A DNA stretch of 64,000 nt from Escherichia coli. Its GTDB lineage: Bacteria; Pseudomonadota; Gammaproteobacteria; Enterobacterales; Enterobacteriaceae. The stretch lies in assembly GCF_003019035.1 (NCBI RefSeq), contig NZ_CP027447.1; one strand, written 5' to 3'. This document shows positions 43,901-46,900 of the stretch, in pieces (within the stretch, counting starts at the first letter, position 1; each line of letters opens with the position of its first letter). The position numbers were made by a program.

Positions 43901-46900
43901 ACGGGTAAAACTCATTAGAATTACCAGAATTCGGCCAATGCATTGCAAAAATGACATACAAAGAGAGATGTGCGCAGGCACTTAGCCGCGAGGGGCATGG
44001 CGAAGCCATACAGAAAGCACCAGCATTCAGAACTCCTGTGAAAGCGGCATAGTGGCCGCCTGTGCAGGAGTTTTGCTATGACCCGTATCGTGCTGACCGT
44101 TGCCACCCTATGATGCGATTAAAAAAACTCATCGTCGCGCCGATGATTGACGTCAATGCTATCGGATGATACCGGGGGTGTTCCGGAAGGAATTCCTTGT
44201 TTCCCGAACTGTTACCAACAAAATTATAACGATGAGCAAGTAAAGACCGGTTGGTGGCAGTACTGACCGGTCTGTGATGGATGATTAATTTCACCTTAAA
44301 TCCTGGTGCTGTTAGGATGCTGACATTTTTCGGGTACACCATTCAGATTATGCAAATGAAGACCCAATCAAAAAATAAATATCCCTGAATATAATATATT
44401 TATAGCACCCATATCTCATCCTGGGCGATAACTAAACCATTTTTGATTAACAAATGAAACAACTGCAACGTTCTTATTATTTCTGGAAAACGTCTCGCAA
44501 AAACAAAACAGCATGCAAAAATCCGCTTTTTTTAAATGATTTTTCGGCGTAATTTTCGCACATACATTAATGAGTCATATATGTAAGGTATTGGTAATGG
44601 CGATGAATACGGTTTTTCTTCATTTATCAGAAGAGGCAATTAAACGGCTGAACAAGCTTAGGGGCTGGCGTAAGGTTTCACGATCTGCAATTTTACGCGA
44701 AGCGGTAGAGCAATATCTGGAACGTCAGCAATTCCCGGTGCGTAAAGCAAAGGGAGGCAGGCAAAAGGGGGAGGTAGTTGGTGTTGATGATCAGTGTAAG
44801 GAGCATAAGGAATGACAAAAATTTTTCATTCTTGAATATAAAAAAACAGATGCCCTTATTCTGGTATTAATACAAGGCTGTTTTACTTGAACTTATAATA
44901 ACTGCAACTGTTACATCATATCTGGAAAACGCCTCGCAAAAATAAAAAATGATGCGTAAATGCGCTTTCTTTAAAGGTTTTGCAAGAGTATTTTGCTCAC
45001 CATGCATTCAAAAATGATATACTGGAGGTATATATGAGCGCTATGGCAGGTATGGATATGGGCAGAATTTTACTCGATTTATCCGATGAGGTGATTAAGC
45101 GACTTGATGATCTCAAAGTGCAGCGCAATCTTCCTCGCGCAGAGCTATTACGAGAAGCTGTAGATCAATATCTGGAAAATCAATCGAAAACGACAATATC
45201 CAGTGCTTTTGGTATCTGGCAAGGGTGTGAGGAAGATGGTGTCGAATATCAGCGTAAGCTGCGTGAGGAATGGTAATGGCAAAAAGAACTGCGCTTTTTG
45301 ATACCAATATCCTTATCGATTTGTTCAGCGGACGAATTGAGGCAAAACAGGCTCTGGAGGCATGGCCCCTACAGAATGCGATTAGTCTGGTCACATGGAT
45401 GGAGGTGCTGGTTGGCGCAAAAAAATATGATCAAGAACATCGCACACGGATTGCAATGAGTGCGTTTAACGTTATTGGGATTTCGCAGGATATCGCGGAA
45501 CGAAGCGTTGCTTTACGGCAGGAGTATAGAATGAAACTTCCAGATGCCATTATTCTGGCAACAGCACAGATTTATGGCTTTGAACTGGTAACGCGAAATA
45601 CGAGAGATTTTGCGGGAATAGCAGGTGTCGTCACACCCTATGAGCTGTAATCCGGGCGACCTGCGCCACCCGGAAAACGTCAGAGATTACTCCCCTTCAC
45701 CCGGGAACAGGAACGGGTTGATGGAACTGCGGGCGTAGCCTTCTTGCTCCATTCGCGCGTCCAGTACCAGAGAGGCGAGGTCATCTGCCACGGCTTCAAC
45801 TTTCGGTTCTTTTTCCTGATAAAGAATCTTCAGGTAAGTGCCGCAGTCATCGCAGCTTTCGGCTTTAATCGCGGCCTGTTCGTCATCCAGCGACCAGTAA
45901 TGCAGTTTGCCGCTCTGCTCGCAGTTGCTGCATTTTACGCGCACTACGTGCCATTCGGTTTCACACAGGTTGCAGTGCAGGTAACGCAGCCCCTGAGTGG
46001 TGCCAATTTGCACCATGCTGGACACCGGCATAGAGCCACATACCGGGCAATATTGACGTTGTTCGCCGTATTCAGCGCGGGCTTTGCCGGGGATCAGATT
46101 AGCCATCTGCGCCCAGTAGAGCGACAGCGCAGCCCAGATAAACGGCGCTTTATCGCTGCTGACGGACGAGAAATCAGAGGCAAACAGTGCGCTGGCCATA
46201 TCTTCCAGCTCCTGAGTCGATGCCTTCTCCAGATTCTCAATCACTGCCAGCGCCGGGCCGCTCATTTCAGGTTTCAGCTCAGCAATCAGCGCCATCAGCA
46301 GCTTTTGCCAGTGCTTATCACGCGGCAGAACGTGAATATCCAGCGGGGGCTTGCCTTGTGCGCTGGCTTCTTTAATGCGCGTGGTCAGATCCATCTCCAG
46401 CGGATGGTCGTACAGCACCACTTCCTGGGCGTGGGCGATAAGCGCAGCAAAGCGCAGGTAATCACCCAGCGGATTATTTTCTGCCAGCTCGCGCAGACGC
46501 TCGGCGCGGCGGTTGTATAAATTCTTGAGCCGAGGGAACAATAACGGCGGAATCATATCCGCCGTACATTTCTCGCTCGAACCCAGCTCATCTTGCGGGA
46601 TTATGCGAATACTCATTCAGCTTTCTTTTCCGTTGTCTTGCGGACCTCACGGTACCAGCGCGGGTGATGTTTCTTCGCCCAGGCGCTGGTAACCCATCCT
46701 TCCACCATGGCGGTAATCGTGCCTTTCACCCAAAGGGCGGCGTAGATATGCACCATGATAACCACAATTAACGCCACTGCGGCAAATGAATGCAGCATTA
46801 ACGCGAATCGGATCACCGGGATTGAGAAAGCAGGCGCAAAATAAGGACGCCAGATAATCACGCCGCTCACCAGCAGCAGAACCAGGAAAATAATCGCCGC

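Follow-up and report, generated by a model that had tools for sequence, protein, structure and literature searches.

The region examined lies within a 64,000-nt stretch of Escherichia coli contig NZ_CP027447.1, referred to here as the window. The interval of interest, 43902-44560, is bounded by the stop codon (43899-43901) of a 617/604-aa ORF, the CX5R gene, and by yiiE, the RefSeq start of which is equivalent to window position 44597. No annotated features were present under the interval in the identical and near-identical genomes H1-H4, and the observation in an earlier note that it contains no intact gene was confirmed. The interval is single-copy, with a median of one place per genome. The GC content was 0.51-0.52 across 43900-44200 and 0.33-0.375 across 44200-44600; the fabY-fdhE region ranged from 0.31 to 0.45 overall, with flanks of about 0.55. 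The interval was compared with the fuller alleles of E. coli IPCEC48 and GPEC856 and with a Klebsiella-like syntenic locus, and breakpoints were mapped with blastn and MAFFT. The following features were distinguished.

43902..43967 (66 nt), plus strand: 3' flank seen exclusively beside the 604/617-aa CX5R gene; genomes that lack this gene show homology from 43968 on
43968..43992, plus strand: nadS remnant, last ~8 codons; aligns with the nadS 3' end in loci L002, L005 and L006
44028..44075, plus strand: stem-loop downstream of nadS; dG -28.4 kcal/mol, z -5.5
44078..44130, plus strand: orfX 5' remnant, ~17 codons; alignment with intact orfX (L006 4111-4323)
44128..44133, no strand: deletion junction; window 44130 equals L006 4164, window 44133 equals L006 4559
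44133..44236, plus strand: orfY 3' remnant, about residues 59-92; tblastn E 1.3e-6; annotated intact in L005 and L006
44244..44273, plus strand: stem-loop after orfY; dG -20.3 kcal/mol, z -3.7 versus shuffles
44274..44368, no strand: spacer of ~95 nt without recognisable content; by alignment, conserved within E. coli only
44369..44596, plus strand: yiiE upstream region; upstream half of a unit of ~440 bp that is duplicated in tandem (blastn, alignment)
44482..44502, plus strand: conserved 21 nt box, TCTGGAAAACGTCTCGCAAAA; candidate promoter/operator element ~115 nt before the yiiE start codon

The 66 nt that follow the CX5R gene are the right-hand tail of a segment, 41672-43967, which alternates with a hydrolase-relE-nadS module. 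They were contiguous with the CX5R gene in AR_0013, O157:H7 and GPEC856; they carry no recognisable feature, and their fold was not significant (z +0.7). As the earlier note had suggested doing, alignment of the junction among genomes with and without the gene (blastn, MAFFT) defined a boundary, and the breakpoint was located at 43968. From this position to 44560 the DNA was found at 92-96% identity in genomes that carry an alpha/beta-hydrolase gene, a relE-like gene and nadS instead of the CX5R gene. The Klebsiella-like genome, which lacks the CX5R gene, has the order fabY, alpha/beta hydrolase (minus strand), relE-like-nadS, orfX-orfY, RHH(vapB)-PIN(vapC), fdhE, and the same fuller order is partly intact in many E. 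coli.

Some part of the interval was present in 5371 of 5426 complete E. coli genomes, and at least 80% of it in 2096. The CX5R gene occurred in only 1061 of these genomes, the hydrolase-relE-nadS module in 2601, and a 394 bp segment deleted in the window in 1270. In 330 genomes the CX5R gene occurs together with the hydrolase module, and there the 105 bp segment 43968-44072 is duplicated and flanks the module on both sides. K-12-like genomes contain 44200-44560 and lack 42152-44199, so that window 44200 onward directly follows what is left of the CX5R gene, its initial 65 nt; RefSeq annotates this gene remnant as an incomplete hypothetical protein. The interval was about 95% identical to other alleles, the same level as that of flanking non-coding DNA and of fabY, where the differences are largely synonymous, while yiiE was 99.5% identical. 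Indels were scattered through the interval.

Homology with L002, L005 and L006 sets in 26 nt upstream of the nadS stop codon and extends beyond it; in the window the stop codon TAG has become GAG. Intact nadS is the HTH antitoxin gene of a RelE-like/NadS pair, the family being assigned by NCBIfam NF041265. Because the coding part is only about 25 nt long, the assignment of the remnant rests on its contiguity with the downstream DNA. The hairpin at 44028-44075 sits within the 105 bp segment, of which GPEC856 has two copies, and recurs in two of the loci compared, IPCEC48 (z -4.4) and the Klebsiella-like one (z -3.0). Its 3' arm holds the orfX Shine-Dalgarno sequence AGGAG (44066-44070), and UUUUG follows it directly. 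This hairpin probably serves as the terminator of nadS and, in the present genome, of the CX5R gene.

The Shine-Dalgarno sequence, the ATG and the first ~50 nt of orfX align with the intact gene, and the rest is deleted. Because a 1-nt deletion after codon 3, shared with AR_0013 and O157, shifts the frame, the remnant reads MTRIVLTVATL and then stops. The remnant is too short for tblastn, which gave no significant match. Intact orfX matched phrog_4499 of PHROGs (E 1.4e-13) and had no match in Pfam, NCBIfam or PADLOC. It is a small gene missing from the RefSeq annotation.

A translated search for pseudogene fragments, also envisaged in the earlier note, recovered the orfY remnant: tblastn matched it in two different frames, interrupted by an internal stop, with RRADD*RQCYRMIPG in frame 2 (44133-44177) and GGVPEGIPCFPNCYQQNY in frame 1 (44174-44227). 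Over residues 59-90 the remnant was 61-67% identical to the WP_001296612.1/WP_001306650.1 family, and the DNA identity to L005 and L006 was 80.7-80.8% over longer blastn alignments that include the remnant. Its position between nadS and yiiE is that of intact orfY in the same two loci. The remnant has lost its first 174 nt and its stop codon, and its reading frame is interrupted by an in-frame TGA and shifts between 44177 and 44174. At the junction ~394 bp are missing, comprising the 3' three-quarters of orfX, the orfX-orfY spacer and those first 174 nt of orfY. orfY had no match in Pfam, NCBIfam, PHROGs or PADLOC, and RefSeq annotates it only as hypothetical. AlphaFold models of both proteins (mean pLDDT 62 for orfX and 56 for orfY) were of too low a quality to be used in a fold search. 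Both orfX and orfY are genuine genes that evolve under purifying selection, with dN/dS values of 0.11-0.13 and 0.12-0.24, respectively, at a dS near saturation for both (pS 0.61-0.70).

The palindrome described previously is real; it occupies 44246-44272, one base from the position given in the earlier note, and is part of the 13-bp stem-loop at 44244-44273. This stem-loop lacks a U-tract and was kept in IPCEC48 (dG -20.7 kcal/mol, z -4.5); at the same position after orfY, the Klebsiella-like locus has a canonical hairpin with a U7 terminator. The stem-loop is a relic of the orfY 3' end. A terminator consensus scan called neither this hairpin nor that at 44028-44075; both are probably still terminators or RNA 3'-end structures.

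Alleles differ in the spacer at 44274-44368 by indels of 1, 3 and 19 nt. The fold of 44274-44560 gave z values of about 0 on both strands, and an Rfam scan of the interval at E<=1 produced no match. The scan for sigma-70 and terminator consensus sequences yielded one promoter-like and one weak terminator-like site, both on the minus strand and no more than in shuffled sequence. Two ORFs were examined and rejected. The 88-aa minus-strand ORF (44076-44342) is spurious: it has no RBS, as the earlier note had correctly read (the 18 nt upstream on the minus strand are TTCATTTGCATAATCTGA), it belongs to no Pfam family, and it is broken in other alleles by stop codons or truncation in the homologous DNA of ampC_0069, K-12-like 9A, GPEC856 and IPCEC48. 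The 35-aa plus-strand ORF (44281-44388) changes frame between alleles. It is open in the window and in IPCEC48, which differ by a 3-nt indel; its N-terminal half is read in different frames in these two alleles, and a 19 nt deletion cuts it in K-12-like genomes.

The yiiE upstream region belongs to a ~440 bp unit that is present a second time as yiiF (vapB) together with the DNA upstream of it. The direct repeat 44458-44561 versus 44897-45000 was 74% identical at a spacing of 439, and a short repeat, 44369-44394, pairs with 44816-44841 at a spacing of 447. The 21 nt box contains the longest run of invariant columns in an alignment of the DNA upstream of yiiE and of yiiF, from three E. coli haplotypes, with the Klebsiella-like RHH-PIN upstream region. 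Its distance to the start codon is preserved (113-118 nt), and both copies are present in K-12. The sigma-70 scan gave no good plus-strand promoter before yiiE, and a literature search on yiiE and yiiF turned up no account of the DNA between the CX5R gene and yiiE. Of the proposal that the interval could be regulatory, the part concerning the right end is retained: the promoter or operator of yiiE probably lies in the right third of the interval, whereas the left two-thirds are non-coding wreckage.

The whole interval is very probably the product of ordinary gene decay, a mosaic scar in the variable, low-GC region between fabY (yiiD) and fdhE. In the lineage of the window, a deletion of ~394 bp would have joined the 5' part of orfX to the 3' part of orfY, and later point changes (the 1-nt deletion, the in-frame TGA, the frameshift and the loss of the stop codon) would have disrupted the fusion. 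The hydrolase-relE-nadS module is missing up to ~25 nt before the nadS end, and the CX5R segment 41672-43967 occupies its place. vapB and ~220 bp of its upstream region would have been duplicated in tandem to give yiiE and yiiF; because of this duplication, the right third of the interval is the yiiE copy of the upstream region. The direction and order of these events are those suggested by a handful of representative loci, not by a phylogeny. The form in the window may have arisen from the GPEC856 type by recombination between the 105 bp copies, or the GPEC856 type may itself be a recombinant of two older forms.

The earlier note had taken the interval for the possible remnant of the element that delivered the effector-like CX5R gene. 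That the sequence is degraded was borne out, but an origin in a mobile element is not supported, because the degraded pieces, nadS, orfX and orfY, are neighbouring backbone genes that are syntenic in the Klebsiella-like genome, where the CX5R gene is absent. A decayed tail of an island, phage or transposon is a highly improbable source. This reading would fit the low GC content of the entire fabY-fdhE region, the occurrence of 43902-43967 next to the CX5R gene only, the GPEC856-type genomes, in which the gene travels with DNA up to 44072, and the label 'transposase' that RefSeq attaches to the C-terminal half of the CX5R-gene product. However, 43968-44560 was found in E. coli genomes without the CX5R gene; this is the outcome that the earlier note had itself named as refuting, and it largely refutes the mobile-element view for these bases. 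The segment 41672-43967 had no flanking repeats, direct or inverted, and searches of Pfam, NCBIfam, PHROGs and PADLOC assigned the 604-aa product to no family, those of integrases, IS elements and transposases included. Its homologues were exclusively hypothetical proteins of Escherichia and Shigella, and a PDB sequence search with it found nothing. No match was obtained with phage DNA, and the matches in a plasmid collection were only to E. coli records of 1.0-4.9 Mb that resemble mislabelled chromosomes. The search for signs of a mobile-element remnant was thus negative.

It is equally hard to credit that the interval still encodes a functional product, whether a small regulatory RNA or a small protein (the 35-aa ORF, or a peptide from the orfX'-'orfY fusion). 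The Shine-Dalgarno sequence and ATG of orfX are preserved, and in ampC_0069-type genomes the fusion reads through to give a 30-aa peptide; in the window, AR_0013 and O157, however, the frameshift cuts it to 11 aa. The 35-aa ORF stays open in the window and IPCEC48, but the shifting frame of its N-terminal half and the K-12-like deletion speak against it. The presence of two strong hairpins would suit an RNA, whereas the Rfam result, the fold statistics of 44274-44560 and the scattered indels would not. More specific is the idea that the box at 44482-44502 is a sigma-54 promoter for yiiE, with a twin before yiiF. This idea would be compatible with gene decay as the main explanation and was considered improbable. 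The box contains TGG at 44484-44486 and GC at 44497-44498, a GG-N10-GC arrangement with the same spacing in all seven aligned upstream regions, which is the spacing of the -24/-12 elements in sigma-54 promoters. TGG and CGCA are the invariant positions across paralogues and genera, while the intervening bases differ (IPCEC48, for instance, has TGGATGCAGTCTCGCA), and the plus strand has no sigma-70 consensus. The fit of TGGAAAA...TCGCA to the sigma-54 consensus, TGGCACG-N4-TTGCW, is nevertheless poor. K-12 has both copies of the box, yet yiiE, yiiF and yiiD are absent from the main text of the genome-wide K-12 sigma-54 ChIP-seq study, in which the nearest listed site is within fdoI (PMC4591121), and likewise from the main text of the gSELEX study (PMC8743547).

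orfX and orfY are shared with T5-like phages and prophage-like contigs, and on the chromosome lie between the RelE/NadS and VapBC pairs. They are adjacent in the Klebsiella-like syntenic locus and in viral contigs, and T5-like phages encode a clear homologue of orfX, after which comes a gene with a more distant likeness to orfY. They might constitute a two-gene module of phage origin, of a new toxin-antitoxin-like or phage-interaction kind, of which the window would hold an inactivated form; this was thought unlikely. On the same reading, the hairpin that masks the orfX RBS and the yiiE/yiiF box may be control elements of the module that still function.

Beyond annotation the significance of the scar is small. 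Gene decay explains a long unannotated gap, and the fabY-yiiE spacer of K-12 can be understood as a double deletion scar. The CX5R segment 41672-43967 and the hydrolase plus toxin-antitoxin module alternate at one chromosomal site, with coexistence in the 330 genomes mentioned above, and the unannotated orfX and the hypothetical orfY are flagged together with their T5-phage relatives.

Compared with type II systems composed of a RelE/ParE-like toxin and a NadS HTH antitoxin, the window keeps the last nadS codons and the downstream hairpin. As only ~25 nt of the antitoxin gene remain and the toxin gene is absent, it has no RelE/NadS system at this site. There is also similarity with VapB (RHH)/VapC (PIN) upstream regions: the DNA upstream of yiiF-vapC and that upstream of the Klebsiella-like RHH-PIN pair are paralogues of the right third of the interval and have the 21 nt box in common with it. 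Unlike VapB in VapB/VapC operons, yiiE is not paired with a toxin gene. The box lies ~115 nt before the start codon, whereas an antitoxin operator usually overlaps the core promoter, and binding of YiiE or YiiF here is putative. The phrog_4499 proteins of T5-like phages are 49-51% identical to orfX and share the motif PC.CSCWMCG, and the T5 gene after the phrog_4499 homologue is orfY-like at its C-terminus; chromosomal orfX and orfY, however, are located between two toxin-antitoxin pairs and not in a phage, and the window holds fragments of them only. The interval also resembles the deletion scars of variable E. coli chromosomal regions, for instance the partial 'hypothetical protein' that lies between fabY and yiiE in K-12-like genomes; in both cases the pieces are truncated and frameshifted, and other strains have the intact genes at the same site. 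Such scars and the interval alike evolve in a near-neutral manner, and no function of their own is expected. None of the nadS, orfX and orfY pieces of the window is annotated in the RefSeq records examined, and the interval differs from other such scars in that three genes contribute to it, two of them fused by a single internal deletion.

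The interval 43902-44560 of the window, which is E. coli chromosome, has arisen by ordinary decay and rearrangement of genes; the surrounding region is variable and low in GC. The interval consists of backbone-derived wreckage of nadS, orfX and orfY and of the upstream region of yiiE. E. coli AR_0013 was 100% identical to the interval, and SCU-301 was 100% identical to the window in vapC and in the CX5R gene, the effector-like ORF directly upstream of the interval. The features were as follows.

40682-41671, fabY/yiiD
42048/42087-43901, 617-aa ORF with CX5R motif, between fabY/yiiD and the interval
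43968-43992, nadS remnant, stop codon TAG changed to GAG
44028-44075, hairpin between the nadS and orfX remnants (dG -28.4, z -5.5)
44066-44070, retained orfX Shine-Dalgarno sequence
44078 (ATG) onward, first ~17 codons of orfX, out of frame after codon 3 through loss of 1 nt
~44128-44133, orfX/orfY junction; only the last third of orfY follows
44133-44236, 3' remnant of orfY, stop codon lost
44244-44273, 13-bp stem-loop (dG -20.3 kcal/mol, z -3.7)
44482-44502 and 44921-44941, conserved box TCTGGAAAACG(Y)CTCGCAAAA
44597-44815, yiiE
45034-45276, yiiF-like ribbon-helix-helix (RHH) gene
45270-45650, vapC, PIN-domain
thereafter, minus strand, fdhE, last in the gene order

Megablast with the interval as query gave matches in 5371 of 5426 complete E. 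coli genomes and covered at least 80% of it in 2096; only 1061 genomes carried the CX5R gene. Representative loci were extracted and compared with the window. Downstream of fabY, ampC_0069 (L002) has an alpha/beta hydrolase gene on the minus strand, then a RelE-like gene and nadS. Its homology to the window sets in at 43968, 26 nt before the nadS stop codon, and extends across yiiE with 95.7% identity. In the K-12-like strain 9A (L003) window 41600-42151 is fused directly to 44200 onward, which indicates that K-12 has lost 42152-44199. Of the CX5R gene K-12 retains just the initial 65 nt, labelled incomplete hypothetical protein in RefSeq. From both comparisons, only 43902-43967 is specific to the CX5R configuration. 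The alignment of this junction among related genomes, proposed in the earlier note, placed the right-hand boundary at 43967/43968. The idea that the interval is debris of the element that delivered the effector-like gene was rejected, as the DNA from 43968 onward is backbone also present in genomes without that gene.

The interval had been described as devoid of convincing genes, and RefSeq annotates nothing there in the closest genomes. The 88-aa minus-strand ORF was ruled out as a gene: it has no Shine-Dalgarno sequence and no Pfam family match, and the homologous DNA in four other alleles has it truncated or interrupted by stops. The nadS-yiiE distance was about 1.03-1.06 kb in GPEC856 (L005) and IPCEC48 (L006) versus about 0.6 kb otherwise, and the additional ~394 bp (L006 4165-4558) occurred in 1270 genomes. 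These long forms contain two small genes, orfX and orfY, 3' of nadS. The degraded remnants suspected earlier were indeed present. The orfY piece was picked up by translated search (tblastn), split over two frames and containing an in-frame TGA (RRADD*RQCYRMIPG and GGVPEGIPCFPNCYQQNY, E 1.3e-6), and the nadS and orfX ends were aligned. On the parsimonious reading the short form would be the product of a deletion and the long form older, because the short form has two gene ends that the long form has as whole genes, and because the complete fabY-fdhE gene set is syntenic across genera. The latter was seen in contigs carrying the Klebsiella-type orfY protein (L012-L015; named by one source as from Klebsiella sp. 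MISC125), with the order yihX, yihY, dtd, fabY, hydrolase (minus strand), relE-like, nadS, orfX, orfY, RHH, PIN, fdhE.

The hairpin at 44028-44075, whose 3' arm contains the orfX Shine-Dalgarno sequence, is kept in IPCEC48 and a Klebsiella-like locus. This hairpin is probably the terminator of nadS and, in the window, probably also of the CX5R gene, 127 nt upstream. The short palindrome noticed earlier is real (44246-44272) and belongs to the stem-loop directly 3' of orfY; its Klebsiella-like orthologue is a textbook terminator, a hairpin followed by U7. Between this stem-loop and the right third, 44274-44368 (~95 nt) folded no better than shuffled sequence and carried indels of 1, 3 and 19 nt between alleles. 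GC content was 0.33-0.375 in the right part of the interval and 0.51-0.52 in the left third.

A regulatory function, also proposed before, is probable for the right third, as the yiiE upstream region with a candidate element; the left two-thirds are gene remnants. Window 44458-44561 is repeated directly at 44897-45000 (74% identity, spacing 439 nt), with a further short match between 44369-44394 and 44816-44841. As yiiE and yiiF are paralogues, 44369-44596 is the 5' half of one of two tandem copies of a unit made up of the vapB gene and its upstream region. When the yiiE and yiiF upstream regions of three E. coli haplotypes were aligned with that of the RHH-PIN pair of the Klebsiella-like locus, the conserved box was the longest run of invariant columns, and its distance to the start codon was preserved (about 113-118 nt). 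The invariant TGG and GC of the box show sigma-54 spacing, but the match to the consensus of such promoters is poor, and yiiE and yiiF go unmentioned in the main texts of the K-12 sigma-54 ChIP-seq and gSELEX papers. The box is best kept as a candidate promoter or operator element.

One and the same slot, which extends from the fabY stop codon to ~25 nt short of the nadS stop, is taken by window 41672-43967 or by the hydrolase-relE-nadS module. Both occur together in 330 genomes (GPEC856 type), in the order CX5R gene, window-like 43902-44072, hydrolase gene, relE-like, nadS and a second copy of 43968-44072. This 105-bp repeat, the nadS 3' end plus hairpin, flanks the module on both sides (L005 5062-5166 and 6881-6985; about 87% identical), and position 44072 is directly adjacent to the hydrolase stop codon. 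Because the first copy ends precisely at the stop codon of this convergent gene, it may act as a bidirectional terminator. With its two copies, the double form could have given rise to the window form (about 730 genomes, 1061 minus 330) by recombination between them; alternatively, the double form could itself be a recombinant. No flanking repeats and no integrase or IS-family signal accompanied 41672-43967. The CX5R ORF (L001 2186-4000 and L005 3183-4997 among the compared loci) is uninterrupted in the window. The ATG at 42087 is its more likely start, as it is preceded by a good AAGGAGG, and the product would then have 604 aa. RefSeq splits it into an "incomplete hypothetical protein" and a 304-aa "transposase" (WP_225104151.1, WP_146849359.1), and does so also in a genome that matches window 42152-43967 at 100% identity. 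There seems to be no basis for the transposase label: in Pfam, NCBIfam, PHROGs and PADLOC the protein hit neither a transposase nor any other family, the PDB gave no match, and the homologues were only Escherichia/Shigella hypothetical proteins.

The fabY-fdhE locus is unusually diverse between strains, judging by the low GC of its accessory region (window 41700-45500, 0.31-0.45 versus ~0.55 in fabY and fdhE) and by the window's fabY, in which 33-47 of 942 nt are different from other E. coli alleles; the fabY protein accession was shared by five of the six genomes with an annotated fabY that were compared. IPCEC48-type genomes carry another variable cassette, two additional minus-strand genes between yiiE and yiiF (L006 5463-7076; a 246-aa hypothetical protein and a DUF6708 protein). 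Another E. coli configuration (L008-L011 1927-4393 and 5442-5774) has three or four unknown genes on the minus strand downstream of fabY; its orfX-orfY alleles are highly divergent (66-74% protein identity to IPCEC48), and yiiE and yiiF are replaced by a 110-aa gene. The window vapC is intact and overlaps the end of the yiiF-like gene, an arrangement also seen in the RHH-PIN pair of the Klebsiella-like locus. Of 5426 complete E. coli genomes just 56 had the vapC DNA, so in K-12 and in the majority of strains yiiF seems to be an orphan VapB antitoxin. Compared with O157:H7, parts of the interval were 93.6-97.1% identical, resembling the flanking spacers (94-95%) and fabY (96.4%), unlike yiiE (99.5%), which fits near-neutral evolution of the interval.

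The sole mildly interesting by-product was the orfX-orfY pair. The 70-aa orfX (L006 4111-4323, its L005 equivalent, L015 2150-2362) has an AGGAG ribosome-binding site and is not annotated in the long-form RefSeq genomes examined; its protein has a basic N-terminus and the motif PC.CSCWMCGH. The 92-aa orfY product is RefSeq hypothetical protein WP_001296612.1 or WP_001306650.1. Among IPCEC48, a divergent E. coli allele (L009) and the Klebsiella-like locus, dN/dS was 0.11-0.24 for both genes (about 0.12 for orfX) at near-saturated synonymous divergence (pS 0.61-0.70). Several orfX database entries are frameshifted variants, so orfX decays in some long-form strains too. AlphaFold models of orfY and orfX were too poor to use (pLDDT 56 and 62). 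Relatives of orfY had only 24 representatives among 1.8 billion clusters, and orfX matched phrog_4499 (E 1.4e-13). In viral contigs L016-L021 homologues of orfX and orfY lie side by side. Homologues 49-51% identical to orfX were found in 431 phage records, mostly T5-like and all "hypothetical", and in T5 itself (L047 2998-3309 and 3431-3778) the gene 3' of the orfX homologue resembles orfY at its C-terminus.
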